Positions 9,739 to 60,361 of a stretch of 64,000 nt of DNA are shown here, in pieces (the first letter of the stretch is position 1; every line of letters begins with the position of its first letter). The notes beneath the pieces were generated by a model. It did no database searches. It was not told the DNA's origin and was given only the letters and a program-made list of their open reading frames with translations. This DNA comes from Schmidtea polychroa. Taxonomy: Eukaryota. The DNA is taken from contig CM097885.1 in the NCBI GenBank assembly GCA_044892525.1, positions 139,934,001-139,998,000 on the forward strand, read 5' to 3'. The translations under genes were made by a program, and so were the position numbers.

Positions 9739-10218
9739 ATGTCAGACGCTAGACAACATCTACAACAGCTAAGCCGGTTCGTCGAAATAGAAAATGATTC
9801 AATAAAAACATTAAGAGAAAAACTGAAACAAATAGAACTGCTAGAACAACAAAGCCACAACGCACCGCTGATATCCAAACAAAACTTTCTCACCGACAGA
9901 TTAGGATCAACAAATACCGATACCGACTTGTCGATTCATTACCAATGGTTTCAGCAACGTCTCGACGACCCAACGCTGAACATCGAATATGTGAGGATAC
10001 GCGAACGAGTCAAAACTCTGTCTCAGCGGATACGAACATCAATAGTAGAGAAAGCAGCGGCCTTGAGAACTTGTAACATTTGTAAGATGCGACCTGTCAA
10101 AATTCTGATTCTACCTTGTGGGCACCTTAGCCATTGTGACGAATGCGCCGCCAGTTTAATCCGGTGTTCTATGTGCACATGTGTAATAAAAGAGAAGCAC
10201 ACAATCTACTTCAGTTAG
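9739..10218 (+). CDS. 159-aa protein with C-terminal IAP/XIAP-type RING finger (putative E3 ligase); no BIR domain seen
   Basis: CNICKMRPVKILILPCGHLSHCDECAASLIRCSMCTCVIKEKHTIYFS* matches the spacing and the terminal hydrophobic tail of IAP RINGs. Confidence 0.85.
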   Translation: MSDARQHLQQLSRFVEIENDSIKTLREKLKQIELLEQQSHNAPLISKQNFLTDRLGSTNTDTDLSIHYQWFQQRLDDPTLNIEYVRIRERVKTLSQRIRTSIVEKAAALRTCNICKMRPVKILILPCGHLSHCDECAASLIRCSMCTCVIKEKHTIYFS

Positions 10219-10802: not shown

Positions 10803-11320
10803 GAGATATTAAGGCCGAGCTGTTGAAAAGTCCAGCCGGTCAGGAGAAATTGAAACTGAGCTGTGAAAAGTCCAGCCAGTCGGAGATATTAAGGCCGAGC
10901 TGTTGAAAAGTCCAGCCGGTCAGGAGAAATTGAAACTGAGCTGTGAAAAGTCCAGCCAGTCGGAGATATTAAGGCCGAGCTGTTGAAAAGTCCAGCCGGT
11001 CAGGAGAAATTGAAACTGAGCTGTGAAAAGTCCAGCCAGTCGGAGATATTAAGGCCGAGCTGTTGAAAAGTCCAGCCGGTCAGGAAAAATTAAAACTGAG
11101 CTGTGAAAAGTCCAGCCAGTCGGAGATATTAAGGCCGAGTTGTTGAATAGTCCAACCGGTCAGGAGAAGAAGATTGAGCTGTTGAAAAGTGCCAGCCAGT
11201 CGTAAGGCCGAGCTGTTGAAAAGTCCAGCCGGTCAAGAAAAATTAAAACTGAGCTGTGAAAAGTCCAGCCAGTTCGGAGATGAAGAAGATTGAGCTGTTG
11301 AAAAGTGCCAGCCAGTCGTA
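10803..11320 (+). repeat. 80-bp-period tandem array (dimer of ~40-bp subunits, ~13 copies of core GAGCTGT(T)GAAAAGT(G)CCAGCC(A/G)GTC) in the E1 leader
   Basis: GAGATATTAAGGCC recurs at 10803, 10883, 10963, 11043 and 11123, degenerating toward the 3' end. Confidence 0.95.
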
Positions 11321-17900: not shown

Positions 17901-20900
17901 CTATCAAATGAAAACCAACCCAGCATGCAGAGCTACGGAAAACGTGTGTAGAACGGGAATTTCGACTATAATATATGAAGCTAACACCCAAAAATGCCGA
18001 CTCCAATTGTTAAAAAGTGCTCTATTCAATGAAGTAAAAGGAGAAATTTACGAAAACGAGGATGACGATGAAGAGAATGGAAACGTAAGGATGCGAAATG
18101 GGAAACCAGTTCCGCCATCCCCCAAAGAAAAGAGACTCACAACCCAAAAAACACCAACGGCATTAATTACAGATGACCCAGATATCGGCATGAGATTCAT
18201 TAGAGAAAAAGAGACCACCAAATGTGACAGCATAGTATACCGGACGAACTACGCAGGTATCTACATGTCAAGGCAAGTAATAGACCGAGCAGTGGGAAAG
18301 GTAGCAACAGAGGACGTAAAATTGTACCTGTACGCCAATAACAAAATGGACTTTTTATTTCACCGAGGACAAACGACAATGCAAAAAGTGTATTACGATC
18401 TTATACAAAATGACTGTTCATTGAATAAAGAGATACTAAAAACAAAATTAGCCATCGCAATAACACACCCAGATAACACAATGCCATCACTCCCGTTACC
18501 GGATGGACATTTTGGTAGAATGGTGGGAGAGGTAATGTATACATATGCATGTACCAAGACATTTGCGCGACTGCCAAGAAAGCCCACAATCCCACCAGGG
18601 AAATGTGCAAACGAGTTAGAAATTAGTTACAAGGGGCGAAACAGATTCGTTCAACCCGTCACTAGGATAATGAACCCAATTGGATTTTACCCGAACACCT
18701 TTAACTGTTCAAATGCATACGGACCGTTATATGAAAAACCCGATGGGAAATGGATAATGTTACCAGTAAAAACCGAAGTACAAGAGCCTAAAAAGTTTGG
18801 ACTAATAGAACTCGCAACAGAACAAGATTTCAAACCAATTGATGTGTCAAAAGCAGGTATGTACTCACCAGAGGATTTAGAAACGGCACGATTAAACGTA
18901 TTATTCCCAGCAAGACGGGAATCCATTCTATCGAATATGGTTACCATAACTGGGGGAACGAATTTCCAGTCAGGCCCCAATTACGAACTATTATTGTCAC
19001 CTGATCATTTTCAACAAGCCACGTCAAACATGATGAAAGCAATGTGGGGAAGATTTCTAGTATTCGGTCAAATGATGGCGGGAATATTGGGAATCATTCT
19101 TATTATCCAGATTGTCAGAGTAATATTAACTCAAATGTTAGCGTGTTTTGATATCTATAAGAGAGAAAAGAAGGTAAATTGGAAATTGATAGTAGGCTTT
19201 CTACCATTTTTGGCAAAAACAATGGTGTTGCACGGTCATTCTAAGGACATACACAGAATAAAACGATTGATCAAAATACTGACAAAAATAAAAGGAACTG
19301 ACGAGGAAGTCGGTAGACGATTTCGGAAAACAATGTATGATGAAGCAACAAGGACGCAACTGAAAAAGAACAAACCAAAATTCTTAGACAGATTTAGGAA
19401 TCGATCAAACAGCAGCGATAGTGATGATGACGACAACGGGAATGACAAATACCCATATCCAAGTAGAAACCCGAATGAAAAGCCAATAGAAACAGCACCA
19501 TATTGGGAGAAAGAAAAAACAAATACCTGGATAGCCAACGGAAGTTATATACCACCAGATATCGTTGGACAACAAACAGCTTTGACCATGACACAAAATA
19601 TGTATCCACAGTTACCAAGTCAACCAGGGATGAACTATATGCCGACCCGAAGAACGAAAAGTGTAGACCAAGCGGACGACGTAAGAACGATAGCAGTAAT
19701 GAGTTCACCAGGAGGTGCGGCAGTAACAGTCATGATCCAAATCAACGGGAAAGAGACAAGCGCAATGATAGATACCGGAGCAAACGTATCAGCAATAGCA
19801 ATAAACCAAATACCCAGTAAATGTTGGAAAGATATCGAACAAACAACTATCCATATTATTGCATGCAGTAAAGAAACCGTAGACGTAGTAGGAAGATGGT
19901 GGACTACGTTACGATATCAGGATAACGAAATTGAAACGTATCTAGCGGTGATACCCAAACTGAGTGAACCATGTATAATCGGAACGGATTTAATGCCGGA
20001 ATTGTTTAAGGAGGTAGTAATCGATTTAACAACAATGTGTCTAAAAGACAAAATGGGTAGAATATGCAAGATGAACGCAATAATTAGATGTCCGGAGAAA
20101 ATAATTGTACCCGCAAAATCACAGATGATATGTCAAATAAAAGTGGATGCAGGAATGGAAGGAGAAGTCATTTTTGAGCCAAGCAAATCATTCGAAAAAC
20201 GACGAGAATTACCATTAGCAAGAGAAATAATAACAATAAATGAAGACGGGGAAATACCAATTAACATCACAAATTTCGAGGAAGAAGACAAGATCATATA
20301 TGAAAATGAAAGATTGGGTAGATTGACACCCATGATAGACATCGAATTACCAAAAATCATCAACGAAACAACGAAAGCTGACGAATTATGGATAATTGAT
20401 AGCACCTTGCTAACGGAAAAAGAGAAGGAAAGACTTCAACAATTATTGATAGAATATAAAGATATATTCGCAATTTCGGATTTAGATTTGGGAGCATGCG
20501 ATGTTACATTACACGCAATACCATTAATAGACGAAACGCCAATCGCACTACGTCCATACAAACTAGCAGAGAAGCAAAAAGAGATAGCCGAAGTCGAAGT
20601 ACAAAAAATGCTAGATGCACAAGTGATCGAACCAAGTTGTTCGCCATGGCAATTTCCAGTAGTCATGGTGAAGAAAAAAGACGGTACTCAGAGATTCTGT
20701 ATCGATTATCGGAAATTAAATGCAGTAACAAAAAGAGACACATACCCGTTACCAGACATCAATGAGATGTTACTTATGTTACAGGGGGCCGCATATTTTA
20801 CATCTTTAGATCTAAAAAGTGGATATTGGCAGATCAAAGTCAAGGAGGAAGACAAAGAGAAAACAGCATTCACACTGGGCCGAGATCTATACCAATTCAG

Positions 20901-23900
20901 GAAAATGCCGTTCGGACTGACCAATGCCCCAGCATCATTCCAGAGATGTATGAATTTTGTCACACACGGGATCAAGCAGTGTATGGTATATATTGATGAT
21001 TTATTAATATATTCAGCAACATTCGAACAACATTTGGAAGATATCAGAAACGTGTTCGTTCGATTACGACAATGGAAACTGAAACTTAAACCATCCAAAT
21101 GTGATTGGGCAAAAGAAAAGGTTACGTTCTTAGGACACATAGTGTCAGCAAAAGGCAAAGAACCAGATCCAAGAAACATAGAAAAAATAAAAACATGTCC
21201 AGCACCAAAAACTGTCACCCAAGTTCAAGAATTTCTCGGATTATGCGGATATTATCGAAAATTCATCAAAAACTATGCAGGTATTGCGAAACCAATACAG
21301 GAATTAGTGAAAAAGGATATTTCATTTATTTGGGGTGCAGAACAACAAAAAGCGTTTGAAACATTGCGCGATAAATTAATCGAAGCCCCAATACTAGTAC
21401 ATCCTGATTTCAAGAAACCATTCCTATTAGCAACAGATGCAAGTGGATATGCAGCCGGAGCAATATTGGGACAACTCGACGAAGAAGGAAAAGAAAGAGT
21501 GATTGGATACTACAGTAGAACGTTTAAAAAACACGAGAAAAACTATTCCGTAACCGAGAGAGAAGCGTTAGCAATCATACAAGCAATTAAACACTTTCGA
21601 TATTTGTTATGGGGACACGAAATATGTATCACCACGGATCACCAACCATTAGTATGGCTTGGTCAACACAAAGAAGCTTCAAGTAGATTGATGCGATGGG
21701 CAATGCAGTTACAAGAATATTCACCGTTCATAAAATTCAAAGCGGGAAGAGCGAATGCCAATGCGGATTGTATGTCCAGATTTATCTTTCCAGATTTAGT
21801 AGATCACGAAATGCAACGAATATGTCTGATGGTAGCAGAAGATTTAGATTTTTGCCAATTACGGAAAGACCAACAAGAGGATACAGAGTTGAAGCAAATC
21901 ATTGAATATGTGAAAACAGGGAAAGCAGAGGTATATGAGAAAGATCAAAAATTGAAGGAGCATATGGATAAACATCGACATCGATATATTATCGAGAAAG
22001 ATTGGTTATTGATAATGGATGGCGAGAAAAGACTGATGTGCATTCCCGAGAATAGACGTAAAGATCTACTAACACAATACCATGACGGAAGACTCGGAGG
22101 ACATATGTCATCTAAAAAGACGTTGGCACGAATGAAACAAAAATATTTTTGGCCTACATTGACCGAGGATGTAGCGGAATGGGTGAAAAATTGCATAACT
22201 TGCGCAACCAGAAAAAACACGGGAACAAAATGGAAGGCACCATTAAAGCCTATGCCAGTGCCAGCAGAACCAATGACAATGATATCAATGGACGTAGTCG
22301 GTCCACTACCAGAATCAGATAGAGGAAATATATATATATTGGTAATCACAGATTATTTGACAAAATTCCCCGAAGCATTCGCAACGGCAGATCAGAAAGC
22401 AAGAACAATCGCAAAAATATTAGTAGAGGAAATATGTTGTCGATATGGAACGCCGAAACAAATACTGACGGATCAAGGAACGAATTTCATGAGCGAAATA
22501 ATGAGCGAAGTCACCAACTACTTCAAGATCGCAAAATTAAGAACATCACCGTACCATCCACAAACTAATGGTATGACAGAAAGATTCAATGGAACACTGA
22601 TTCAAATGTTATCAAATTATGTCGATCGTCATCAACGAGACTGGGATGAATATATAAAATTATGTCTAATGGCTTACAGAATGTCGATTCACGCGTCCAC
22701 AAAGATGAGTCCGTTCAAGTTGATGTACGGCAGAGAATGCAATATGCCAATGGATTTAGAATATCAGCCACCGATATCACAATACATGGAAATAGACGAT
22801 TATGTAACCAAGTTCAAGGAAAGAATGCAGGAAATCTGGGAAACCGCAGGATTGAATATAAAATTTTATCAAGAAAGTTACAAAGAGTTACATGATAGAA
22901 AGAAAAACGTCAAACAGCATACGTTTCAAACAGGCGAATGGGTGATGATTGAAACACCAGAATTAATTCCAGGAACCACCAAAAAATTACAACGAAACGG
23001 TAAAGGGCCGTATGAGATTCTATTCGTCGGAGAAACTAATGTAAGAGTACGATTAGTGAACAACCCTTTTACAAGACCAATATACGTAAATGTTGCACGA
23101 TGTAAGCCAATTCCGAAAACCGCCACCAGTCAGCCAGAAGGACGTACACTAACGACAAGATCACAAACGTATAGAATAAACATGTTACAGCAAATAAACG
23201 AACCAACAGGTAATCGATTAGGGTTACAACCATCAGAAGCCGAGAAAATCATAAAGGAAGTAAAAGTTAAAATGCCCGGATGGGCAGAAGACAGATTAGA
23301 TTTTGAGATATTGGGAGGTCTGCTAACAATGATCGAAAATTATGCAAACCGAGAAAGAACACACCCATTGCTCAGGGTAGTTAAAAGTCAATGGCCTATA
23401 TTATTCACGATCACAGACCATTACGGAGACACACCCCTGCACAAGCTTTTAAAGGTGGGTAGTAACGAACAGATATTAGAAACAATTGAAGCATTTCGCG
23501 ATTGTAACATTTCGACAGATCAAGAAAACAACCAAGGTTACACTCCACTAATGATAGCAGCCAATCGGGATAAAGCTAAAGATATTATCATCGCATTACT
23601 TGAAACTGGGTCAAAGATAACCACACAAGATCACAACCAGGAAAATGCATTACATCATGCAATCGAAGGGAAAAGTACGGAAGCCTTCATAATCTTAGTA
23701 GATCTATTATCGTACGAGGATAATAGAGAGATAGGAAACATGTATGACGGGCTATTAACTGCAATCAAAGAGAAATTAACAACAATTGCTGGAATACTAA
23801 TTGCATGGAGGAACCCGATAAAAAACGATTATATGGTAGATATAAACGAAACATTTACCAAAGGAGAAAACACCTTGATGAGAGAAGCGATGAGAGGACA

Positions 23901-26418
23901 TCACCTATTCGAAATTCCAAATCAACTACTACAACGTGGCATAAAATTCTCAAATCACAAAGACGAACAACTAATCAGAAAACGAATTACCAACTTCGAA
24001 AAAGCTATATCTCAATTTACCGATAAAGTACAAGTAAAATTTTGGGACACCGTGAGTGTTTTGCATATGATGGAAACTATGAACAACATTCGAGAAACTT
24101 ACCTAAGCATTATTCAAGTTCTAACGGCAGAGGAACGCATTAATAATTCGAACAAGAAAAAGATAAAAAGGAAGAAAGTAAAAGCAGGAGAGTCTGAGGA
24201 ACAAGTCGATCAACCAATAACCGATATAGCAACAACAAGTAAACCAAAGACAATAAACTCCGACCAAGAGATAGTAGTACGTAAGGCTAAAGAAGTATTC
24301 TTTGAAGAAATGCAAGATCTATCCGATGAAGCGATACTAGCAAAAATAACCAAAACAGTACACACCTACGCAAGAGATCAGACCACAAATCTAGACATAG
24401 GAAAAATAAAAACATTTATACCACTAGCATTCACCTTACCAACAAAAGACTCAAGAACACCATTACAACAAGCCATTTTAGCAGCAAAAGAGAACAGAGC
24501 AATAACCATCATAAGAATCCTCAGAGACTTCGGAGAAGAATCTAATGCAAAAAATGGACAAGGAGAAACAGCAATGATGTATGCAGCCATAACAAATATA
24601 CACCCGAAAACATTACATATACTACATCAATCAGGTTCGAGACTTGACGAAAGATCAAACGAAGGAAATTCTACCATGGATTGGGCAACAATACAACCAA
24701 ACTTGGAAATGATTAGATTCATTTGTAAAAATGCTACAAGAACTGAGGTAGAAAATATCTGTAAAAACACGTCACAGTTCCAATGGAACACGATACGGAT
24801 GAACTTAGAAGCCATGAAGTTGCTGCTAACATGGAGAATACCACAAAGCAATAAATATGCAATAAATATAAATGAGTTCTACGAAAACGGAGAAAATGCT
24901 ATGGTTAAAAATACACTAACAAAAGGAGGAACTCCGAAAATCATAATGATCGTATTAAACAGGGAAGATCTCAAATTCACGCAGAATCTAAACGAACAAA
25001 AGCGAATCGGGAAACATCGTCGGATACAATTAAGAGAATTAGTGAAAGAATGGAATAGAAAGAGACATGTAGCAACAGGCAGAAAGGAGTTCGAATTCGA
25101 AGCAAAATTAGCAAGAAACAGAGTGCTAACGGCATACCGCAGATTGTTGAATGATATAAATGTCGAGGACGACATTTTAAACGATAGCGGGGGAGATAAA
25201 GACGATAAAGACGATAAAGACGACAATAATAATGAAAAAGGTCGAAACGGGAATAAAGAGAAAGAGAAATCAGAGGAGAATAATCAAGAAAATAACGACG
25301 CGAGTAGGAAAAAAGAGGAAAATAACCCGAGAAACCGAATGAAGCAAGAAGAAAAGACGAATAGTGGAAAACAGAGGGTATGCCTACTTTTTACCAACAA
25401 AGAAATGGAGACAAATATGATGATAATGATACTCGTACTAACAATGGTGGAAATGATAACAGCCCAGGGAGGAATGAGAACGATAAAAGAAGCCAAAGAA
25501 ACGGAAAATAAGGACAACAAAGAGGAAGAACTAAAACAAGAAAAGAAAAAACAAGTACAAGAGCAGCAATGGGATCTAAAAGAAGAATGGGATTTAAAAG
25601 AAAGGTGTATATTAGGAAGATGTATGTCTAGAGCTTATCAGAGACTAGTGTTAAAAAATGAAGATGCAGAACCAATAACGGAAGTAAGAATACAAGAAGC
25701 ATACCGAAATCGAGAAGGAAAGAGAATAACGAAAGTTAAAGGGAAGGAAGTACACCTGGGAAAAGGAGGTGAGGTAGTGATAACGCAACTCCAGCCAAGA
25801 AAAGAACACAAAGTCTGCATCGCAAGATTAAGACCGGGTGAAGACTGTCTACAATATGTAATACAGCAACAACCTCCAAAAGAATACACAATATGCATCT
25901 GGAGAAAAGATACAGCGAGAGAATGTCGACGATACCCTGGGAAAAGAGGGAAGAAAAGAAAAATCGATGATGAAAAAGATGAGCAAGGAAAACGCAAGAA
26001 AACCAGTGAGAAACATCAAGACAATTATGTATCCGAAGAGGAGATGGAGAAAATACAAAAAATGGCAAAGGAAGGTATGAACGAGGAAATAGCAAGAATA
26101 CGAGGAATGATGAAAGGAAATGACAAAGACGGTAATCTAAAAAGCACAGAAGCAATATCAACAATAACGAGCAAGGAAGAAGCGGAAATTATAAGCATAA
26201 AACAGATGATGTGGATCAGCGGCATAATAATAACAGGGGCCTTTTTAATCATAACGGGGGGGACAATAAAAATAATCAAAGATAGACGGCATCACGGAGA
26301 ACTAGAAATGGCCAGAATAAGAAATTTCCAACATCGTGTAAAACGACCAAGTAATATCAAGCAGGAACAGTGGGTGGAGGCCTGGAATGCTCAGCGCCCT
26401 CCAAGCTCACGTATATAG
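11983..26418 (+). CDS. gag-pol: E1 single polyprotein (~4,811 codons open; first ATG 12538): Gag-Ubl x3-AT-hook-Bcl-2-like-glycoprotein-PR-RT-RH-IN-ANK-FN3/TM
   Basis: Three CCHC knuckles (13288-13440), protease IDTGA (~19768), RT YIDD (20989-21000), RNase H TDASG (~21433), integrase HHCC, DDE core and GPY motif (22080-23110). No internal stop. Confidence 0.97.
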   Translation: MIRVSKGNTISYFHCRHPSNQVNSEPAQEESREYTNNPGKAIQNPHKGRQYQNRTRPIQQTLTVENPREKTEKSKRKITDKPNLRSSSKPGDVLFSGDELDQLKRGRSFRQQRGISQGAKRPHKTPIYDQENPTAGHTPSRSRSRESLSDITNNLTGSTEELSVHSLATSLENLKEIIEFQEPIKMNVVKTDEYKEKFRGEPFNGNANKLATFITNFEVYIDVCGWTSEAISKRMPLFLCDSALEVYLEAKERNTKLDNWENIKTFLRKTFGASKPINQALGELASRKQRANESITLYASELRRLAKKAMNGNLPEENLIGYFIEGLRREEVRASVGCQMCKTLEEAIDWATRCELHLPAQMNVMQEEGRIATATVKTENGDNNNHEPKMNQFIPGAHQIFKPPQGRSNGNNSERNNSNNGNNFNNRRNMNDNKQCRTCGKPGHWDRDCYRNANCNRCGRRGHTENICQSRGCFNCGQLGHISRDCRERSQQQRPPQRNNNYAPNPQRQSNPSEGKQMNVMQEISQMKQMMQQMMRPRQEQVPQPTQNIRMMRSTENLNNYEVQQHAQEWQRLQAEEERIKRERIQQRQEQPLRINMMRMVKEIKEQYCYNYGKNPRVVPMSEPEKLKETITAAQKENSTTPLKGNQRIQKIFWKKIKDKIERENEQTKTEAEAENNENEKQINHLKHNMIRELDSEELTILENNKLKKVPRMRNLRINMMRTTKKVLSTDDDEDYVSSLGGEMLQLNENIDQLREKIGADEDERESDVTSESEDENIEMKLRKEREEAIKQVKEILPVVVRNQEFIDIIPYRRFIQKIMKLERNEKDLIPNEEKVIIKKYMEKMKQAETTRYVIKIGTSKGLERIWIKNAVTDELFDWIREHLGSSRKKEYLYQHQGEQIKPDMHLIDALIWPGETQILKLYKEKQPANIHEWAKDAKAEYDFNIKLKLEQIKQCTLRRNLDKLIKQIQEQVEDNWDLLITRRTADMHELLSRLRDTELLRMSDWRTINLIHKYGRLKETQPQKLEITIWLPNEEKRRIKMSNQSTVDDLVTKINQEITEKVQSESSDGMIDDVVMMYDKIILRAEDDTSLSEMGMWDNHQIIRILPMDEFRTRDITYQKEIRDRMKTLYQKSVEIIEIHQQWLKEKGLQGKIKKLSVRSCRRTPWERTWNAENKEWEIRKGIFVETDIGEIESESEEEEDEPPKYEEDEIESTSDDESETDVTSESETETRHIHAMRKKEREYADMDSEEAMEAREREEKERYKQLGDILATGTKNQKRQVIALANIILKTSENIHNLREMAKAIEEYRQYNEWYPEQLEQIIRKWRNQEWAQDTQERYRIRVKYPDKSIEDTEVHPTTKIRELKKKLAYETPFHLQLFGKSLDDNADVGITPMRLGEINVLTMAETLGKPIKRKNKSSKPTKGSLSTPSPNKVASKTNETEEIEEIILEDSDEGAGERSPILVRWPTGAEIWTTSQPSTSYQQPNKLSIEEIIDNTTETETDEQFQRQKGLTKATPEGQTDKIIDEWNEWLRNNDSSLPRTDNERNPNYENTREAGTMMEKRAKGRPKKQGEKPEFKTREQLKQEQGQVRLEKLDKIVWDLKEAQPTIERGEKWIRELVKDMLIITNPQLRRLWQRKVASVDARQLWNTISGIIPKLIKEKTKTTKTDWEETRRVIEQLTLNANDDEHHLVVLTYLMYNLMGLAARKIPNKQFANHVEMTVTIIENTIEPHIIRAGGWKRLIQAPRKNEQERSMQIRLKKLLNELEWELPLKDPASRKASINSLMMTMMIWMLCTSGAAGFTIYDCDNSIIGERYSLRDIEECRQASPNKLDIVKKKVSYHVYQESDFIRTQARECVVSKKVLAYYCGQYSYSTLILPGLDKEIVPIQREDCKELFRTGAMRIRDGVTIHGQSGMIKTESIYVAGRVKSTDGSCNGGTYTIRGEVISGVVVIESYTVELKEYEAQFDANNYQMKTNPACRATENVCRTGISTIIYEANTQKCRLQLLKSALFNEVKGEIYENEDDDEENGNVRMRNGKPVPPSPKEKRLTTQKTPTALITDDPDIGMRFIREKETTKCDSIVYRTNYAGIYMSRQVIDRAVGKVATEDVKLYLYANNKMDFLFHRGQTTMQKVYYDLIQNDCSLNKEILKTKLAIAITHPDNTMPSLPLPDGHFGRMVGEVMYTYACTKTFARLPRKPTIPPGKCANELEISYKGRNRFVQPVTRIMNPIGFYPNTFNCSNAYGPLYEKPDGKWIMLPVKTEVQEPKKFGLIELATEQDFKPIDVSKAGMYSPEDLETARLNVLFPARRESILSNMVTITGGTNFQSGPNYELLLSPDHFQQATSNMMKAMWGRFLVFGQMMAGILGIILIIQIVRVILTQMLACFDIYKREKKVNWKLIVGFLPFLAKTMVLHGHSKDIHRIKRLIKILTKIKGTDEEVGRRFRKTMYDEATRTQLKKNKPKFLDRFRNRSNSSDSDDDDNGNDKYPYPSRNPNEKPIETAPYWEKEKTNTWIANGSYIPPDIVGQQTALTMTQNMYPQLPSQPGMNYMPTRRTKSVDQADDVRTIAVMSSPGGAAVTVMIQINGKETSAMIDTGANVSAIAINQIPSKCWKDIEQTTIHIIACSKETVDVVGRWWTTLRYQDNEIETYLAVIPKLSEPCIIGTDLMPELFKEVVIDLTTMCLKDKMGRICKMNAIIRCPEKIIVPAKSQMICQIKVDAGMEGEVIFEPSKSFEKRRELPLAREIITINEDGEIPINITNFEEEDKIIYENERLGRLTPMIDIELPKIINETTKADELWIIDSTLLTEKEKERLQQLLIEYKDIFAISDLDLGACDVTLHAIPLIDETPIALRPYKLAEKQKEIAEVEVQKMLDAQVIEPSCSPWQFPVVMVKKKDGTQRFCIDYRKLNAVTKRDTYPLPDINEMLLMLQGAAYFTSLDLKSGYWQIKVKEEDKEKTAFTLGRDLYQFRKMPFGLTNAPASFQRCMNFVTHGIKQCMVYIDDLLIYSATFEQHLEDIRNVFVRLRQWKLKLKPSKCDWAKEKVTFLGHIVSAKGKEPDPRNIEKIKTCPAPKTVTQVQEFLGLCGYYRKFIKNYAGIAKPIQELVKKDISFIWGAEQQKAFETLRDKLIEAPILVHPDFKKPFLLATDASGYAAGAILGQLDEEGKERVIGYYSRTFKKHEKNYSVTEREALAIIQAIKHFRYLLWGHEICITTDHQPLVWLGQHKEASSRLMRWAMQLQEYSPFIKFKAGRANANADCMSRFIFPDLVDHEMQRICLMVAEDLDFCQLRKDQQEDTELKQIIEYVKTGKAEVYEKDQKLKEHMDKHRHRYIIEKDWLLIMDGEKRLMCIPENRRKDLLTQYHDGRLGGHMSSKKTLARMKQKYFWPTLTEDVAEWVKNCITCATRKNTGTKWKAPLKPMPVPAEPMTMISMDVVGPLPESDRGNIYILVITDYLTKFPEAFATADQKARTIAKILVEEICCRYGTPKQILTDQGTNFMSEIMSEVTNYFKIAKLRTSPYHPQTNGMTERFNGTLIQMLSNYVDRHQRDWDEYIKLCLMAYRMSIHASTKMSPFKLMYGRECNMPMDLEYQPPISQYMEIDDYVTKFKERMQEIWETAGLNIKFYQESYKELHDRKKNVKQHTFQTGEWVMIETPELIPGTTKKLQRNGKGPYEILFVGETNVRVRLVNNPFTRPIYVNVARCKPIPKTATSQPEGRTLTTRSQTYRINMLQQINEPTGNRLGLQPSEAEKIIKEVKVKMPGWAEDRLDFEILGGLLTMIENYANRERTHPLLRVVKSQWPILFTITDHYGDTPLHKLLKVGSNEQILETIEAFRDCNISTDQENNQGYTPLMIAANRDKAKDIIIALLETGSKITTQDHNQENALHHAIEGKSTEAFIILVDLLSYEDNREIGNMYDGLLTAIKEKLTTIAGILIAWRNPIKNDYMVDINETFTKGENTLMREAMRGHHLFEIPNQLLQRGIKFSNHKDEQLIRKRITNFEKAISQFTDKVQVKFWDTVSVLHMMETMNNIRETYLSIIQVLTAEERINNSNKKKIKRKKVKAGESEEQVDQPITDIATTSKPKTINSDQEIVVRKAKEVFFEEMQDLSDEAILAKITKTVHTYARDQTTNLDIGKIKTFIPLAFTLPTKDSRTPLQQAILAAKENRAITIIRILRDFGEESNAKNGQGETAMMYAAITNIHPKTLHILHQSGSRLDERSNEGNSTMDWATIQPNLEMIRFICKNATRTEVENICKNTSQFQWNTIRMNLEAMKLLLTWRIPQSNKYAININEFYENGENAMVKNTLTKGGTPKIIMIVLNREDLKFTQNLNEQKRIGKHRRIQLRELVKEWNRKRHVATGRKEFEFEAKLARNRVLTAYRRLLNDINVEDDILNDSGGDKDDKDDKDDNNNEKGRNGNKEKEKSEENNQENNDASRKKEENNPRNRMKQEEKTNSGKQRVCLLFTNKEMETNMMIMILVLTMVEMITAQGGMRTIKEAKETENKDNKEEELKQEKKKQVQEQQWDLKEEWDLKERCILGRCMSRAYQRLVLKNEDAEPITEVRIQEAYRNREGKRITKVKGKEVHLGKGGEVVITQLQPRKEHKVCIARLRPGEDCLQYVIQQQPPKEYTICIWRKDTARECRRYPGKRGKKRKIDDEKDEQGKRKKTSEKHQDNYVSEEEMEKIQKMAKEGMNEEIARIRGMMKGNDKDGNLKSTEAISTITSKEEAEIISIKQMMWISGIIITGAFLIITGGTIKIIKDRRHHGELEMARIRNFQHRVKRPSNIKQEQWVEAWNAQRPPSSRI
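14530..16200 (+). other. Three ubiquitin-like (beta-grasp) domains in the E1 polyprotein (~14530-14760, ~15052-15306, ~16000-16200)
   Basis: For example RYRIRVKYPDKSIEDTEVHPTTKIRELKKKL...HLQLFGKSLDDNADVG and LEITIWLPNEEKRRIKMSNQSTVDDLVTKI...DDTSLSEMGM follow the ubiquitin strand-strand-helix pattern. Confidence 0.6.
16672..17230 (+). other. AT-hook (KRAKGRPKK) followed by a Bcl-2-like domain in E1
   Basis: The BH2-like IIENTIEPHIIRAGGWKRL parallels Bcl-xL YLNDHLEPWIQENGGW, preceded by a hydrophobic alpha5-like helix HLVVLTYLMY. Confidence 0.7.
17341..19230 (+). other. env: Signal peptide + chuvirus(Jingchuvirales)-type glycoprotein ectodomain + TM in E1
   Basis: FTIYDC...YSLRDIEEC, CDSIVYRTNY, YANNKMDFLF...NDCSLNKEILKTKLAIA, GRMVGEVMYTYAC, CANELEI, GMYSPEDLETARLNVLFPA and TM ~19051-19140 match the Cys/motif pattern of chuvirus glycoproteins. 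Confidence 0.8.
23419..24960 (+). other. Two blocks of ankyrin repeats after the E1 integrase
   Basis: GDTPLH, GYTPLMIAA and QENALHHA in block 1; SRTPLQQA, GETAMMYAA and GNSTMDWA in block 2. Confidence 0.9.
25405..26418 (+). other. C-terminal type I membrane module of E1: signal peptide, FN3-like ectodomain, TM, short tail
   Basis: SP METNMMIMILVLTMVEMITAQ, FN3-like VVITQLQPRKEHKVCI, TM MMWISGIIITGAFLIITGGTIKII. Confidence 0.65.
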
Positions 26419-26586: not shown

Positions 26587-26946
26587 ATGGAGCGAATAGG
26601 CGAGGAAGTAAACCACAGTACAACAACCGAGGAGATGTGGAAACAACAATGTGCAATGTTAACTCAAGTGATTTCGAATTTACAGGAACAAGGACTCGCT
26701 GTACAAAGAAGCTTAGTCGAAAGTTTAAATAAAGGCTTCAATTATGTAAGAATAATCGAAGACCAACGAATAAAAATAGAACAAATGCAGCGAGAGATAG
26801 ACCGAATATCACGATACAGCCAGGTGCAAGAAGAGGAGTTAATAAGAATCGCGGAAGAGATGGAGCGAGAGGAGATAGAAGACTGGTCAGAATGGTTAAC
26901 CAACAGGGAAGAGGGCGGACAAGAGGCCGACTCTTCCAGCCAATAA
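26587..26946 (+). CDS. Accessory coiled-coil protein (~119 aa from the first ATG)
   Basis: Purine-rich ORF with heptad-like pattern between AT-rich spacers. The ORF track starts it at a TTG (26563). Confidence 0.6.
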   Translation: MERIGEEVNHSTTTEEMWKQQCAMLTQVISNLQEQGLAVQRSLVESLNKGFNYVRIIEDQRIKIEQMQREIDRISRYSQVQEEELIRIAEEMEREEIEDWSEWLTNREEGGQEADSSSQ

Positions 26947-27035
26947 ATATAACCTAACATAGCAATGTAAATAAATGTAAATAAAAATACGAAACTGTAC
27001 CTGTAACGAATATATGTATATATATAATTATAGAA

Positions 27036-28424
27036 ATGGATAAGCGACAACGAGAAGAATTCAGAGAAATTGTTGAACAAATCAGAAAGTCCACCACAAT
27101 TCGAATACACAACCATGTAACGTGTGGAATATGCAAGAGTTTATTAAGAGAACCTCACCAAACCAGATGTGGATGCAGAATGTGCAGAGAATGTGTAGAG
27201 GAGATAATAAAGAAGGGACCACAATGGTGCCCAGTATGCAAAGAAACAATGATAACAAGTTTGGGAGATACAAACGAAGATAAAGCAGCTGTAAAAGATA
27301 TGTTGAACGCAAACCTAGGATGTAAAAACACCCCATGTAATTGGCGAGGAGGGATATGGGAAGTGAGGCAACATATGGAGCAATGTGAGTATAAAATCAG
27401 TCAATGCAAACGTTGCCAAGAAGAGATTAAAGTCAATGAAGAAGCAGAACATCAAAGTCGATGCGAAGAAAGACTAGAGAAATGCGAGTATTGCGGAGAA
27501 AACGACACCTGGAAGAAACTAATCAGTCAACATCACAACATACAAGAGGAGAAAGTGTGCGCAGAATTCAGAGGAGAATGCCCCAACAAATGCGATAAAC
27601 CCGGAGTAATAAAACTCGCTCAACACCTAAAAGAGTGTGAAAGAAAAAAGATAACGTGTGTGCTAGGAAAATGGGGATGTCCGAAACAATTACACCGAGG
27701 GGAATTACCCCAACATCTAGCAGAAAACGTATCAACACACGCGGAAATATGGTCAACGGTATTACAGGAAAACGAAAGGAAAACCGAAAACTTAGAAAGA
27801 GAAATAGTCTCGCTAAAAGCGTTGGTAAAAGAACTATTGGAAGAAAAGGAAGCATTCGAAGAGGCGAGAACAAGTACAAAGATACAGACAGATCTAGTAG
27901 AAACTAGCAACATTATGGTGAAAGAACTACATCAAAAAGTAAGCGAATTAAACCTCAACGAATTAATACCTACGGCTCCGTACATATGGAAAATAACGGG
28001 AGTAAAAGAGAAGATGCAGAGAGCGAGAAATGGAAAGGATACAACATTACTAAGTCCAGCATTCTACTCATGGAAAAACGGGTATAAAATGAAAATGAAA
28101 GCATACCCCAATGGGGATGGAAGTGCATACGGAACGCATTTCTCAGTATTCTTCTTGATGTGCAAAGGGCCATACGACGAGTTAATAGAATGGCCATTCA
28201 AAGCAAAAATAGACCTCGCAATGATGAACTATCAAAGTATACACGAACAGAGTTTCCATACAGCGGGAAACCTCGTATGTTACCAAAGGCCCTTGGAGGA
28301 AGAAGGACCAGCAACTGGAGCACCAAATTTCATCCTACAGCGGAAAGTAGAAGACATGACGAGAAACGACACTATATACATGAAAATAGCGGTGAGGCGA
28401 GACGGGAAGAGTAGGACGGAGTAG
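27036..28424 (+). CDS. Full-length intronless TRAF homologue (RING, TRAF zinc fingers, coiled coil, MATH), 462 aa
   Basis: RING CGICKSLLREPHQTRCGCRMCRECV...CPVC; fingers CKNTPCNW..H..QC, CEYC and CPNKC; MATH YIWKI...SPAFYS...GYKM...YPNGDG...THFSVF...WPF. Confidence 0.95.
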   Translation: MDKRQREEFREIVEQIRKSTTIRIHNHVTCGICKSLLREPHQTRCGCRMCRECVEEIIKKGPQWCPVCKETMITSLGDTNEDKAAVKDMLNANLGCKNTPCNWRGGIWEVRQHMEQCEYKISQCKRCQEEIKVNEEAEHQSRCEERLEKCEYCGENDTWKKLISQHHNIQEEKVCAEFRGECPNKCDKPGVIKLAQHLKECERKKITCVLGKWGCPKQLHRGELPQHLAENVSTHAEIWSTVLQENERKTENLEREIVSLKALVKELLEEKEAFEEARTSTKIQTDLVETSNIMVKELHQKVSELNLNELIPTAPYIWKITGVKEKMQRARNGKDTTLLSPAFYSWKNGYKMKMKAYPNGDGSAYGTHFSVFFLMCKGPYDELIEWPFKAKIDLAMMNYQSIHEQSFHTAGNLVCYQRPLEEEGPATGAPNFILQRKVEDMTRNDTIYMKIAVRRDGKSRTE

Positions 28425-28641
28425 AGAGACGAATAATTTTGTATATACTAATTGTAAATATCGGCGTATATATCCAGTAAAATATTATATAGTAGTGTAG
28501 AAAATTCCCCCAAATCTACCAAAGGTAAACTTAAGCGAAAACTCCTAAAACAACTCCTATAACGAATTATAAAAATAAATAAATAATAAACCAGATATAA
28601 GCGTACAACGTTAAGTTAATGATATCGTTATTTAGACAAAG

Positions 28642-29679
28642 ATGACACAAGAAGGAACTGAAGCCCCAAACCATGAAACCAAAGTCAATAAAATCCATAA
28701 GGGAAAATGGGTCAAAGTAATGTTACAATTGACGAACCAGACCCACAACCATCTCGAAGAGGCCAGGGAATACGAGAATAACAAATATCAGTGGTTAATA
28801 AACAATTTAAGAGCCGAAGCAGAAGCATGCAAAAGAGCCTCTAAGTGGGCATCATTGGAAAACACTCGCCAAGAAGCGCACAGCCACTATTTAAAACAGT
28901 TAGTGCAGGAAGCACGGAAACGATTGACGGACGAAAACACAAAACGAGAAGCAGAAAAACAAAAGGAAGGAAGGAAAATGAATCACCTATTGGCAGAAGC
29001 CCGAAACTGGAAGCGGCAGAACAAAGAGATGAAAAAAGAAATGAAAGAATTGCCTATGAGATTAGAATACGAAAGCGAACAAGGCAAATGGGAGGAAAAT
29101 CTGGTCATAAGAGAAGAACTGAAACGGCTCAGAAAGATTGCGGCCCGAAGCCAAACATGGCAGACCAAAGCCATGGAATTTGAAAGACATCTAGCCATGA
29201 AAATCTCCATAAGGGAGCACGAGAATGCCACAATGGAAGAACTGATACTTCAACAGTCAGGACGACTCGTGGAACTGGTGAATAAGGTCGCAGAACTAGA
29301 ACGAGATGTCAACGGATACCAAGGAGCTCTGGAGCAGAGAAATATGGTACTGGCGGGGAAAAACAAAAAGTTAGAAAACGAAAGGAAAATGTACAACGAA
29401 AATCTTAAAAATCTGGAGATAGAGATCAAGAAATGGGAAAACGGCGAAAAAGCGGAAGAGCTAGAAAAACAGATAGAGGTAAGAGACGATGAAACCAGGT
29501 ATCTAACATACCTGTTGGACGAGGAACTTAACGTGTCAAGAGCACTAAGAGACGAAGTGCAAGAACTTAGAGCGCAGATTCCCCGATACTACATCCCATT
29601 TGATCCCATCGCACTCCAATTACAAACGTCAGTAGAAAGCGATGAGGGATATGTAGGCCAGGAAGAGACCTTTGTATAA
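28642..29679 (+). CDS. Accessory long coiled-coil protein, 345 aa
   Basis: Intact E/K/R/L-rich heptad ORF flanked by AT-rich spacers. Confidence 0.8.
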   Translation: MTQEGTEAPNHETKVNKIHKGKWVKVMLQLTNQTHNHLEEAREYENNKYQWLINNLRAEAEACKRASKWASLENTRQEAHSHYLKQLVQEARKRLTDENTKREAEKQKEGRKMNHLLAEARNWKRQNKEMKKEMKELPMRLEYESEQGKWEENLVIREELKRLRKIAARSQTWQTKAMEFERHLAMKISIREHENATMEELILQQSGRLVELVNKVAELERDVNGYQGALEQRNMVLAGKNKKLENERKMYNENLKNLEIEIKKWENGEKAEELEKQIEVRDDETRYLTYLLDEELNVSRALRDEVQELRAQIPRYYIPFDPIALQLQTSVESDEGYVGQEETFV

Positions 29680-29852: not shown

Positions 29853-30554
29853 ATGAACACTGAAAACGGACAACCCAGCATAACATCTATAATCGAGTTA
29901 GAAGAGGGAGAAATTGAAGTTGATGAAGTGGAGAGGAAGAAAACTATCAAGGAAGAATTACAAGAAGAGAGACAGGAAAACGAAAGATTAGTTGAAAGAT
30001 GGAGAGATAATCGAAAAATGATTAAAGTATTGAAAAGAGAATATATCTTGTTAGAAGGAATAAAGAAAGAAGTAGAGGAAGAAAACGAATGGCTTCACGA
30101 GCAAAGAAAGCGAGGGAGAAATTGGGAAAAGATCGCGGAAGAATTATGGCAGGAGAGGGCCAGTCGAAAGGCCGACGAAGTGATTAGTGACTATTGGAAA
30201 ACCGAGGCACGGAAACACCAAGAAAGCCTGAAAGAGTTACAACTCCAACTACACCAAAAACAGAAAGAATGTGAGATAATGAGACGAATGAACAACAAAT
30301 ACCAGGAAATAGACAACGAAGAGGACGGGGAAAGGGAAAATGATTTTCTACAGATAATGAACCATAGAAACCTCGAAAGAGCAACACAAGAAATAAAAGC
30401 ACTAAAAGGAAAAATAATAACCCTAAGGCAACAGTTAGACGAAAGAGACAAACAATTAAAAGTACTACCCGAATTGAGAAAACGAGTAATAAAAGCGGAA
30501 ACGAGAGTGATGAGAACATCCGAGAAAACCCGTAAAAAGAAAACCCGGCAATAA
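29853..30554 (+). CDS. Accessory coiled-coil protein, 233 aa
   Basis: Intact E/K/R-rich heptad ORF with an acceptor-like TTATAG just before the ATG. Confidence 0.75.
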   Translation: MNTENGQPSITSIIELEEGEIEVDEVERKKTIKEELQEERQENERLVERWRDNRKMIKVLKREYILLEGIKKEVEEENEWLHEQRKRGRNWEKIAEELWQERASRKADEVISDYWKTEARKHQESLKELQLQLHQKQKECEIMRRMNNKYQEIDNEEDGERENDFLQIMNHRNLERATQEIKALKGKIITLRQQLDERDKQLKVLPELRKRVIKAETRVMRTSEKTRKKKTRQ

Positions 30555-30609: not shown

Positions 30610-31236
30610 ATGTGGTTCGGAGTAACCCTGGTGACAATAATGATGATAGCGATAAACGGGATACCCATGTGGCAGCCAATCCCAACATTCTGGGAGAATC
30701 CCGAGAAACAGCAAAACCCTTTAACCAAACTAAAAAGCGAGAGAAAGCTCTCCAACAACATCCCGAAACAATGCTGGAACAAAGTCGTCTGGGAAAAACT
30801 TCAAATGCAACTCCACCTACAAACCCAAAAAATCGAACAGCTCGAAATTCTCTTACAAGAACAAACCACCCAACAATCCTTGAAGGAAATCATCATGAAG
30901 AAGGAAGTAAAAGAAAGCCAAGTCTTACTCTATACTACCATCAGTGAAACCCTTATCATCTGCGCACTAGTCATCTGGAAAGCGTATGATATTCATCGAA
31001 CATGGAGAAGAAACCAGTCACTATCCGAGAAACAAGAAAGAAAGAACCCACGATCGAAAAATAAACATAAACGAGCAGTACATTTTCAACAACCAAACCC
31101 ACCCGACCAAATGCAACAAAATCTATCTCCTGACCAAATGCCTGTTACAATCCAGCTCCCCACGATAACAACTTCAACCAGCCATCCGACCCAGAATTCA
31201 ACCAACCAAGACATTCCGAACCTTGAGATCATGTGA
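30610..31236 (+). CDS. Accessory type I membrane protein, 208 aa (SP, coiled-coil ectodomain, TM, P/Q/T-rich tail)
   Basis: SP MWFGVTLVTIMMIAING, TM VLLYTTISETLIICALVIW, basic stop-transfer residues follow. Confidence 0.75.
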   Translation: MWFGVTLVTIMMIAINGIPMWQPIPTFWENPEKQQNPLTKLKSERKLSNNIPKQCWNKVVWEKLQMQLHLQTQKIEQLEILLQEQTTQQSLKEIIMKKEVKESQVLLYTTISETLIICALVIWKAYDIHRTWRRNQSLSEKQERKNPRSKNKHKRAVHFQQPNPPDQMQQNLSPDQMPVTIQLPTITTSTSHPTQNSTNQDIPNLEIM

Positions 31237-31467: not shown

Positions 31468-34400
31468 TGTTGGGCTAAAATGCGGAGTGGAGAAAACTGG
31501 AGCGAATAGAAAAATAAACCCCGAAAGATAGATGAAATAAAATAAAAATATAAAGTACCATAAAAATCTTACTAGTAAATAGGAAGGAACAATAAAAGAA
31601 CAACAAAAGAATAAGAATAAGTAAACAAACTAAATAAAATCCAATAAACCCCTTAAGATTTAGAAATAAAACGGGTTAAGGTACACAGCGGATAAAATAG
31701 AAATAGAATAAGTAAAAAAGTGACAACAAATAAAAGAGAAATTTAAGAAATAAATAAAAAATAAAACTATCTTTAAGTCTAATTAAAACAAAAAATTATA
31801 TTACAATAAAGTAGCAATAAACCTACAGGAAAAATAGGAGGAAAATAATAAAAATAAGAAAATAAATAAAATAATAATAAGAAATAAGTTAAGTCATTAA
31901 AATCTAATATATTATAATAAAAAACATAAAAATGATAATAAATAGTAAAAATACAAGCAGGTAGCGTCCTGATTGGACGAAAAATACTATATATGTAACG
32001 TGAAAAATTAGACGACAACCACTTTTAATTTTTCACGATTACAGGTAAAATTTTAGAAAAACTTAAAACCACTTTTAATTTTTCACGATTACAGAGCATA
32101 GACTTCAGATATTTCACCGAATTCAGGACTAGAATCGCAAACACTAATTCCAGAGATTTTCAGAACTTACCTTTAATTTAAATTCGATTTCGTTCCAGTT
32201 TTTGAAACTATCAGTAGGTTGATTGATTTATATGTATTAGTTAATTCATTAATGATGAAAAACAAAACTCATTTCGTAAAATAAATTTATTGAAATACAA
32301 ATGGCCTTTTCTTCATGGTGCCGGCGACTGTACCATCTGAGAGCTCCCAGTATGATGTGGACGAGTTGGAAATGTACCACGGTAGAGAACACGACAGTGG
32401 GAAGGTTGACCTTCTTAAGAAATCCCGAAGATGCTGAAAATGAGAATGTGATATTTGCAGAGAAAGATATTTACCATAGGAGAGATCTACCAAGGGTATG
32501 ATGAGGCTGCGGTTGTGTGGAATGAATAACATCATACTTGGAGTCCAAATGATAGGGTCGCCGGGTGAGCTTTATTGATTCATTTATTCTTTATTGATTC
32601 ATTTATTTTTATTGATTCATTTGCTGCTATTTGATTCCTTCATTCATTTTATTATTCATAAATTGTATATTAAATATTGATTTTGTGAAAAACGAGTCGA
32701 ACGGTCCCTCATGACGATGCAAGAACGGCGGCAGAGATGATTGCCTTCTTGGGTGGGTCATGAGGGGTGAGGAGACTCCGCAGGTGGAATACTGTTGGCA
32801 GTGGAATTTCTCACCTCGAGCGCGATCTGATAGAGAATCTTTCGTTTTCTTTCATGAAGTCACGCCGAAGTTTCAGAGTAGATAATGTAAATTTCCAAAG
32901 TCGGAGACAATTTTTCGGATTGCGATCAGTAGTTCGTTGTTGTTAGGAAAACTTGCTTTTCCGTCGAATATTGATAGATGTCTGAGTAGGAATGGGCGAT
33001 GAATTGTTAGAGTTTTCACTGGAAGATCTGCTAAGCACTTAAAAATTGAACCCCGAGAGGTACATTGCAGGGACATTAGCGAGTAAACCCATTCATTGAC
33101 TAATTTAGACTTTAGCTTGACATTGAATATCTGATAAAGTTTGGTTTGACGTTGACAGCGGCTCGTCTAAAATGGGAAAGTAAACAAATTTTTTGATAAG
33201 GAAATAAATCACTTGCCGTGAGTCCGAGTGAAGATATCAATAGCGATAGGAGAATCATTAGTTGCCCATGGCCAGATAAATTTCCGACGGGGAAAATCGG
33301 CTGATAATTTGATAAAGTCATCGAACGAGTTGATTGAGAAGGCGGCGGTCGATCGAATGTATTGAGTGGTCTTATCGTGAGTCGACCTAATATCGAAAAT
33401 CCAGAATATAGAGTAATTTTTATCTACTGAATCCGCAAGTCACCCACACAATCGAATTTCTTGAGTTTTGGACACACCAACTGAGTACCCTTCACAACTA
33501 GAGCATCTCTCTACAACTCTACCTCTATAAATCGCTCGCCCACATGTACACATGCATCACACTCAGATTAGGTCACAGTGCACATGTGGATATCATCATT
33601 ACCTAATCATAGGGAGAGAGTCGTACACTGATAACTGCTGGTAGACTACTGGATTGCGTCAGAGAACATGGCAATGCGACGAGAAATTTTTTTTTCTGTC
33701 AGTGTGCAAGTCGCTAGTTAAACGCACCAACATGCATCGTAACGAACCCATCGATAGTTGATGGTATAGATAGACAATCAAATGAACACATAACTGCGCC
33801 CGATTTAAGCGTCACTATGACGATGTTTATGACGTTAAATTTGAAATAACAAATTTGTAATCCATGATAAAAATTTTAAGCGAGGGTATTATGATTTTCT
33901 TACAAACCCGAGGGGTCTACATACAAGACGGGGTGTCCCGGTAATTGCCGATTTTCCGTTCATCATACAGCACGCGTAGAATCTAACGACGTAGCAGCAA
34001 AATGAGTAAAATATAATTGTTAAAATGTAACAACGATAATTAAGATAATAGCGTTCATAGTAACGAATTTACCGTTATGCCGTAGTTAAAAATAGTCAAA
34101 CCCGTAAAGTAAACCTAAAAGCTAGCATAATGAATTGTTTTCATGAATCCCGTTTTCTTCTCATAAAGTAGTGATGATTACATGGGTCAGTTTAGATGTT
34201 TGAGATTGCATGAAGGTGAGTATTTGCCGACGGGGTAGATCGGTAGGCCACTCTTGGATAACTTGGTCGGGGAGGTCTTAAATTTCGTTTTCCGAACATA
34301 TGAATAAGACCCCAGCGAATTTTTTTATTTAAAAATAAAAATTTCTTAACAATTTAGATGAATACTTCAACCAGTTCCGGGAAAACCCTCAGACCTTGCT

Positions 34401-35657
34401 TTTCCTGTGCTGATAAAAATGCCGATATCGCACAGCTCCACTTGTACATCGGGGAATTGAAGAAGAGAATTGACCTCTATGAGGGAACGTGGTTCTCCCC
34501 ACCACAAATGAAGGAGGAGAAGAGCAAGATTCTGCGTTTGGAGCACTGCCGTGACAGTCTCCTGGAAGAAAGCAGGTGCCAGAGGTTAACCATAAAGGCC
34601 CAATCAGAGGCACTGCACAAGGTGTATTCCGAATCAGAACTAGCGAAGCGAGTTCGCGAGTACCCGATACAAGATGGGACTAACGTGTTCCCAATGCACC
34701 ACAAATTAGCTGAAACCTCATCAATATCCAGTTGTAAAGGGCATGGCCCACAAATGCCGCCAATTCCCGCCCCAGTCCTTTCAGGCGATCGACCTATGGC
34801 TGGCGGTTCATCGGACCCTATCTTGGCTCCAGTACTCGTGCCACACCTCCTTCAGCCCCCAGCAGAAGCTACACTCCCCCATCGAAAGCGTAAGCGGCTG
34901 ACGCGTTCTGAAAAAAATCAGAAGCGGAGGAATGCCATGGCCGCGCTCGAAGCATCGCTATCTGTAGCCAAAGCAACTATCAAGGAAATTACAGTTACCC
35001 ATTCCATTCCTACAAAGGAAGTATTCCGGGTAGTTCCGGCCGGTAGTATCAAATTCCTCGAAGACCGCCGGCTGCCCGTTGACATCGACGAGATGCTCGC
35101 AGAGGGAGAAGCATTCTCGTAGCCAATTCTCTCTCGGGTCTCGATTCCCTGCTATTACGAACGAACTTGAAGAAGCGACGTTATCTCGTGACTAAACTTT
35201 AATGTTTTGCATTTACTTAAACAATGCTGAATGTAATTTGATGTTCCGTTCTAATATAACTGTTCGATTTTCTTTGATTGTGTTAATTGTATGTATGATT
35301 TGCTACGGTTGAATTGCATGAGAGAAGGATCACGAATATATAGTAGAAACTTAAATGTCGTACCTTTTGGACCAGGGTCAGACTGAATGATGCGTATAGA
35401 ATGGGTAAGACCTTCTAAGGCACCGTAGAACCCGAACCGAGAAAGGGTTAGGAGTAGTCCTAACGCAGGGGCTCACCTGCTAACTTTTTCCAACCCGTGT
35501 GAGCAGTACCAACGTGGAACATCACCACGGGCTCATACGTGGGAATATGCGAACGATCATTTGGAGTGTGTGAGGGAATGGTCTGAGTAGAATAATGATA
35601 CCTGATGCGGATGATAATCATGCCCATACGTTTTCTTTTCCCCCACATACGCCAACA
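31468..35657 (+). repeat. E1 3' LTR (4,190 bp)
   Basis: Copy of 5074-9263, followed by TSD CGAC. Confidence 0.97.
34358..35122 (+). CDS. 3'-LTR copy of the 254-aa LTR ORF
   Basis: Identical to 7964-8728 except T->K (SVATAT vs SVAKAT). Confidence 0.75.
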   Translation: MNTSTSSGKTLRPCFSCADKNADIAQLHLYIGELKKRIDLYEGTWFSPPQMKEEKSKILRLEHCRDSLLEESRCQRLTIKAQSEALHKVYSESELAKRVREYPIQDGTNVFPMHHKLAETSSISSCKGHGPQMPPIPAPVLSGDRPMAGGSSDPILAPVLVPHLLQPPAEATLPHRKRKRLTRSEKNQKRRNAMAALEASLSVAKATIKEITVTHSIPTKEVFRVVPAGSIKFLEDRRLPVDIDEMLAEGEAFS

Positions 35658-37084: not shown

Positions 37085-37086
37085 TT

Positions 37087-59662: not shown

Positions 59663-60361
<699 letters not shown>

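Follow-up and report, generated by a model that had tools for sequence, protein, structure and literature searches.

The retroelements described in planarians as Burro/GYPSM1 are more than 30 kb in length, are flanked by long LTRs and encode a 4800-residue polyprotein, with env placed between gag and pol and with ankyrin repeats, besides several accessory ORFs (PMC6431247). A MATH_TRAF_C domain belongs to the cargo of Burro1 (Jurka 2007) and of Burro-2 to -4 (Grohme 2018), both as cited in PMC6431247, and in an element of Dugesia tigrina the same domain is found as a separate accessory ORF; in section 7 of that paper, it is the MATH domain alone, not a whole TRAF gene, that is named as cargo. 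No description of a whole gene comprising RING, zinc fingers, coiled coil and MATH domain behind pol was found in the literature searched, although figures or supplements of Grohme 2018 and Lee 2026 may show it. The B-IAP gene of Burro1 (Lee et al. 2026, via PMC13465017) is, like the TRAF gene considered here, an accessory gene of host origin that regulates cell death, and it is reported, second-hand, to protect stem cells. Outside the retroelements, ORF111L of the megalocytivirus ISKNV is likewise a host adaptor of the RING-coil-MATH type captured by a virus-like agent; unlike the element protein, which has 462 residues and five fingers, it has 296 residues and comes from a fish DNA virus, and it binds TRADD and promotes cell death via caspase-8 (PMC3352826). 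On the host side, planarians have an expanded TRAF family, with 121-282 MATH transcripts (PMC7586133), an expansion that has been called unexplained (PMC8807557); a text search of PMC7586133 gave no mention of transposons, retroelements or Burro.

The window analysed here, a 64,000-nucleotide stretch of the Schmidtea polychroa contig CM097885.1, contains a 30,584-bp Ty3/Gypsy LTR element (Metaviridae) with the order PR-RT-RH-IN (table 1). The initial annotation of this DNA had placed a full-length, intronless TRAF gene inside an LTR element, and the paired LTRs with their CGAC target site duplications confirm that position. The LTRs differ from each other at 3 of 4190 bases, so that the insertion is young. 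In its size (above 30 kb), its long LTRs, its one giant polyprotein, in which env stands between gag and PR, its ankyrin repeats and its accessory ORFs, the element is like Burro/GYPSM1. It differs from Burro1/GYPSM1 in having neither the MATH domain in the polyprotein nor the BIR gene, both of which are present in another family of the genome; indeed, Pfam detects neither MATH nor BIR in the polyprotein of the window. The TRAF gene of the window is a fuller form of a known Burro cargo, the TRAF-domain cargo having been in print since 2007.

Table 1. Features of the Burro-type element and of its TRAF gene, in coordinates of the window.
Feature	Position	Strand	Remarks
5' LTR	5074..9263	+	4190 bp, TG...CA; target site duplication CGAC 5070-5073
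LTR-internal ORF	7964..8728	+	254 aa, without Pfam match; second copy 34358-35122; 36% to sister family
Primer-binding-site-like stretch	9271..9288	+	7 nt past LTR; by sequence
RING-only IAP-like ORF, without BIR	9739..10218	+	159 aa; IAP-type RING C-terminal; Pfam zf-C3HC4_3 E 3e-8
80-bp tandem array in leader	10803..11317	.	Related array in sister family
Polyprotein, 4811 aa stop-to-stop	11983..26418	+	gag, CCHC, mononegavirus-type fusion protein, PR, RT, RNase H, integrase, ankyrins
orf2	26587..26946	+	119 aa, coiled; syntenic in three families; 66% sister, 29% Burro1-type
Spacer	26966..27033	+	TGTAAATA at 26966 and 26976, AT-rich tract, TAG ending 27033, 2 nt ahead of TRAF ATG
TRAF ORF	27036..28424	+	462 aa, uninterrupted frame; TRAF by Pfam, PDB sequence search, AlphaFold model and Foldseek
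C4C4-type RING	27123..27239	+	aa 30-68; Pfam and TRAF5/6 alignment
Five zinc-finger motifs (Cys/His)	27321..27740	+	aa 96-235; sequence and alignment
Coiled-coil helix	27729..27947	+	aa 232-304; AlphaFold model; aligns with TRAF3 coil
MATH (TRAF-C) domain	27981..28394	+	aa 316-453; Pfam, PDB alignment
TGTAAATA, candidate 3'-end signal	28453..28460	+	29 nt past TRAF stop
orf4	28642..29679	+	345 aa, coiled coil, without Pfam match
orf5	29853..30554	+	233 aa, coiled coil, without Pfam match
orf6	30610..31236	+	208 aa, hydrophobic at its start and in an inner stretch; nothing above Pfam cut-off
3' LTR	31468..35657	+	Target site duplication CGAC 35658-35661

Other parts of the element can be described more briefly. 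The primer-binding-site-like stretch may resemble tRNA-Pro, and the first 25 nt past the LTR are identical in the sister family introduced below; a search for a clean polypurine tract ahead of the 3' LTR found none. The RING of the 159-residue ORF matches those of cIAP1/2 and XIAP (E 1e-9) and is 33% identical to the IAP RING of the Burro1-type family; the ORF is 41% identical to that of the sister family and has a counterpart at the same place in the Burro1-type family. In the polyprotein frame, the first 186 codons (11983-12543) hold no ATG and an acceptor-like TTTTCATTGTAG is found near 12026; the start of gag may be a later Met, or may be supplied by splicing. A helical stretch of the polyprotein (aa 1590-1770), checked as a BCL2-like region, ends in a GGW motif that we take to resemble BH2. 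It has no Pfam or PDB match, and a structure search with its single-sequence model, a poor one (pLDDT 51), returned unrelated helical proteins (best Z 7.6) and, among the matches listed, no BCL2 protein. The idea that orf4 is a decayed IAP was rejected for want of any similarity (best E 1.9), and orf4 is not homologous to the Burro1-type IAP.

The complete succession of RING, zinc fingers, coiled coil and MATH domain that had been proposed for the ORF is borne out by several approaches. Pfam recognizes MATH (E 8e-25, aa 316-453) and the zf-C3HC4 RING (E 9.5e-5, aa 30-68), and PF21355 scores 88 bits on the C-terminus against a cut-off of 27.4; the PDB sequence search aligns the C-terminus with TRAF3/TRAF2 (E 5e-28) and the RING and fingers with TRAF6/TRAF5 (E 4e-15 and 2e-13). 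The AlphaFold model (mean pLDDT 83.5, pTM 0.37) shows a single helix, 232-304, and a beta-sandwich, and Foldseek places TRAF domains (TRAF3/1/2) at the top, with a best E of 8.5e-17. Vertebrate TRAF2/3/5 and the planarian host TRAFs share the same RING, five fingers, coiled coil and MATH domain. The element protein differs from the vertebrate ones in the RING, where a Cys common to planarian hosts replaces His, and in the MATH loop, where F-x-P-D-x-x-S is lost. By their spacing, the RING ligands are C30, C33, C45, C47, C50, C53, C65 and C68, and C47 aligns with the His of TRAF5/6, so that the fourth ligand is not the His of the C3HC4 type. In the alignment, the loop (aa 407-413) reads FHTAGNL and is preceded by a short deletion, the YPNGDG and WPF motifs being retained. 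The F-x-P-D-x-x-S loop lines the receptor groove in TRAF2 and TRAF3.

The gene is repeated many times in the genome as part of element families. At DNA level, at least 40 copies, all full length and 98-100% identical, were found among the 40 of 364 candidates that were scored; at protein level, at least 92 copies are 91-100% identical, and 84 of these 92 have no inner stop (92 of 1867 candidates scored). A sister family carries TRAF at the same place with 69% identity (92 of 1965 candidates scored), and so does a third family, with 33% identity, called Burro1-like here because of the MATH domain inside its polyprotein; the RT of the window element is 91.5% identical to that of this Burro1-type family. 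The order pol, orf2, TRAF, and then orf4 and orf5, is common to the three families. In Burro1-type copies, the BIR-RING gene (B-IAP) directly follows the TRAF ORF; it is absent from the family of the window, which has the RING-only ORF before gag. A RING-core pattern gives 616 matches in the genome against one with the reversed control, and the first 100 of the 616, by their letters, look like the three element types. Element sequence flanks the gene on both sides in 36 of the 36 copies fetched first and in 21 of 22 copies chosen by position. Planarian TRAF counts (121-282 MATH transcripts, PMC7586133) may include such element copies, and RNAi and expression work on planarian TRAFs should separate host from element copies.

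The Burro1-type family has TRAF twice, as the MATH domain of the polyprotein (L015:6301-6762) and as a full ORF before the IAP gene (L016:7850-9271); the polyprotein MATH retains an intact, host-like loop, LKPDPRS, and may represent a second capture. In many copies of the gene (L027-L045, L081-L096), the TRAF protein is 97-99% like that of the window and the following 1.4 kb only about 80%, a pattern that suggests recombination or module exchange near orf4.

The descent of the element gene from a host TRAF, as the initial annotation held, is supported by the trees as well as by copies and flanks. The element ORFs form one clade in the MATH tree (95/81), in the full-length tree (94/91) and in the FastTree (98), and this clade sits, with a FastTree support of 96 (32 of 64 His-type rows included), in a group of Cys-RING TRAFs with seven host genes and nine library proteins, three of which are named Dendrocoelum lacteum TRAFs. 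No host gene comes close: the best one is 31-34% identical, and word-index protein searches with the ORF return relatives at 23-29% only. The converse derivation, of host genes from element copies, was rejected, since none nests in the element clade. For MATH there is a weak association of L010 and L011 with that clade (91/83), which is absent from the full-length tree, and the codons of both genes are host-like. A single capture from the planarian Cys-RING TRAF clade would be the simplest reading of these trees.

As to the route of capture, the absence of introns had been taken as a sign of retro-capture through RNA. This is unsupported, because a single coding frame spans RING to MATH in seven non-element TRAFs (L001-L004, L005 and two in L006), whose fetched flanks contain no Burro gene, and the lack of introns therefore says little on how the gene was acquired. 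Whether the host TRAF expansion is itself element-borne had also been asked: in part it is, but many host genes lie outside elements. In host TRAF clusters at about 1-5 Mb and 105-125 Mb of one contig (G000:C2; L018-L020, L069-L080), RING and MATH occupy separate frames and the MATH loops vary strongly; this expansion belongs to the host and is distinct from the elements.

The Cys of the RING had been read as a sign of rewiring. It is indeed there, as Cys47, but it is the host state, being found in 11 of 11 aligned proteins, in Dendrocoelum TRAF-2/4/5 and, with a pattern permitting His, in all the RINGs sampled, 20 outside and 9 within elements. It also occurs in 16 of 96 library RINGs, echinoderm TRAF3-like proteins among these, and His at the fourth ligand is accordingly not a strict feature of the family; the His-type pattern T-x-C-G-H-R-F/Y-C has no match in the genome, where an intron could hide one. 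Judged from the RINGs sampled, the Cys is a host-lineage trait that predates the capture. What survives of the ‘rewired’ adaptor is thus found not at this Cys but at the MATH loop. Compared with the nearest host genes, L001-L004, the element protein differs in the receptor-binding loop of MATH. None of the 15 element ORFs compared retains the Pro of this loop, but 18 of 29 host rows lack it as well, so that the loop varies across planarian TRAFs at large.

Purifying selection, for which dN/dS had been named as a check, is evident in pairwise Nei-Gojobori comparisons with the window copy as the reference. Values of 0.04-0.17 were obtained in 24 copies drawn from the protein ranking, a choice that favours conserved proteins; a second sample was therefore chosen by position on contig C1, and its 22 copies, two of which are near-identical neighbours and not independent, gave 0.08-0.17, with 16 copies intact and 6 broken. 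Copy L042 gives 0.12. By domain, against a copy of 91% identity, dN/dS is 0.12 for the RING, 0.14 for the fingers, 0.15 for the coil and 0.05 for MATH, the most constrained. Compared with the sister family, synonymous sites of TRAF are near saturation (pS 0.73) and its dN is 0.18; RT has a dN of 0.013 in this comparison, and the remaining accessory ORFs have values of 0.12-0.52. At third codon positions, A and T reach 0.48 and 0.13 in TRAF and 0.46 and 0.19 in pol, whereas T is 0.30-0.44 in 11 host TRAFs. Near-saturated synonymous sites and a pol-like codon bias indicate that the gene has long been resident in the element. The TRAF ORF is element-borne, of host TRAF ancestry and under purifying selection in every domain; a retroelement, as large DNA viruses do, keeps a whole host signalling adaptor under long selection.

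The conserved signals in the spacers bear on how an element of 30 kb brings six or seven additional genes to expression; TRAF in particular, lying 18 kb behind the LTR, needs an mRNA of its own. All seven accessory ORFs (7964, 9739, 26587, 27036, 28642, 29853 and 30610) are preceded by an AT-rich tract and by an AG that lies 0-6 nt upstream of the ATG, and a strict acceptor rule, set post hoc, yields six matches among 525 ATGs, five of the six being ORF starts. The plus strand of the element holds TGTAAATA at five sites, each of them in a spacer past a stop, and the minus strand at none; with shuffled spacers the mean is 0.13, and five were not reached in any of 5000 tries. The processing motifs had been selected after inspection of the sequence. 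Among 50 copies compared over the spacer ahead of TRAF, all 50 have TGTAAATA and 49 the TAG; one further copy lacked the start. TGTAAATA stands behind orf2, TRAF and orf5, and behind stops in two other families, where the layout of acceptor-like AG and TGTAAATA is conserved too. The spacer looks like a 3'-end signal joined to a splice acceptor, an arrangement by which flatworms trans-splice and resolve operons (PMC8629364), but internal promoters, or an LTR exon spliced in cis, would fit as well. That the Burro accessory genes form an operon, with one long transcript cut at TGTAAATA and re-capped by spliced-leader trans-splicing at the AG, so that about 600 TRAF genes get their own mRNAs and the retroelement becomes the worm's chief supplier of full-length TRAF, rewiring cell-death signalling via a new groove, seems unlikely. 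No paper on trans-splicing of Burro genes was found by title or abstract start in the literature searched. Of four sequencing runs compared as contigs, one taken by guess to be RNA (X6) gives depth in 28 of 30 bins; contigs of another (X5) end in A-runs at 26531 and 29735, which prove no 3' end since 29735 sits on a genomic A-run. Such RNA evidence carries hardly any weight.

With a probability of about one half, we would read the TRAF ORF as an old, selected accessory gene whose product likely works as an adaptor with altered partner choice, damping stress or death signalling where the element is active. A single capture from the planarian Cys-RING TRAF clade would have preceded the split of the three families, and the gene would be expressed from its own short mRNA, spliced at the AG of 27033 and with its 3' end formed past 28453. 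The protein would form a trimer via coiled coil and MATH, with zinc held by its eight-Cys RING, and, as TRAF2 recruits cIAP, could recruit an IAP-type RING ligase, be it the product of the ORF at 9739-10218, an IAP of the host or the BIR-RING IAP encoded by Burro1-type copies; the cell would survive and the element would spread. Constraint in every domain and the IAP-type neighbours argue for this reading, together with the increased cell death reported after knock-down of host planarian TRAF (PMC7586133) and the role reported for the Burro1 IAP. Against it, the family of the window has no BIR gene, so that an element-encoded TRAF-IAP pair is unavailable in cis, and the loss of the loop Pro in host rows means that the changed loop is not element-specific; the direction of the effect on cell death may also be the opposite, given that the viral TRAF ISKNV ORF111L promotes apoptosis (PMC3352826). 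A Rel-homology (NF-kB) search of the genome gave no match, a weak result since the positive control was silent as well.

The initial annotation had also suggested a dominant-negative adaptor. A classic dominant-negative TRAF is without RING, and the conservation of RING and fingers (dN/dS 0.12-0.14) leaves that suggestion unsupported. The protein might still act as a decoy that joins host TRAF trimers by its coiled coil and poisons their signalling through the changed groove and perhaps an idle RING, which we consider unlikely. The altered receptor loop relative to L001-L004, the conserved coil and the hundreds of copies that could outnumber host genes would all suit a decoy; yet a pure decoy need not keep RING and fingers, constrained like the coil, or MATH, constrained most, and the RING Cys, being the host state, is no mark of one.

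Another explanation, about as unlikely as the decoy, is that TRAF serves the cycle of the element itself rather than death signalling: it might take part in ubiquitin-dependent sorting, in budding or in the turnover of the gag-env-pol polyprotein, or help to remove a host restriction factor. A changed groove suits an element-specific substrate, the Burro1-type polyprotein has its second MATH with the loop intact, and ubiquitin-like and env regions are listed in such polyproteins (PMC6431247), but the IAP-type genes carried alongside TRAF speak for death signalling.

It is quite improbable that selection acts on the worm, with element TRAFs used as extra survival or immune adaptors. A benefit to the host is reported for the IAP of Burro1 (PMC13465017) and host TRAFs are essential (PMC7586133); however, low dN/dS between dispersed copies is expected if selection acts through replication of the element, and 6 of the 22 position-chosen copies are broken. 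Element-level and host-level selection can act together. Finally, an incidental, recent transduction without function, of which a near-identical host gene and a single copy would be the signs, has no observation in its favour and is already refuted by the occurrence of at least 92 copies and three families, by dN/dS far below 1, by element-like codons and by a best host identity of 31-34%.

A second young LTR element (36037-49546, plus strand; 13.5 kb) begins 379 bp behind the Burro-type one, with LTRs of 1048 bp that are 100% identical and a TTAA target site duplication. Its 2477-residue frame has the same fusion protein before PR-RT-IN and a weak Bcl-2 match (E 9e-5, below the cut-off), and is followed by a 777-residue ORF without Pfam match. 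Behind both elements lies a host gene, of which an exon with a Smad MH2 domain (E 3e-36) is found at 59660-60361 on the minus strand. A 91-bp inverted pair (4511-4601 and 52354-52444, 97% complementary) brackets both elements and is probably a small dispersed repeat.
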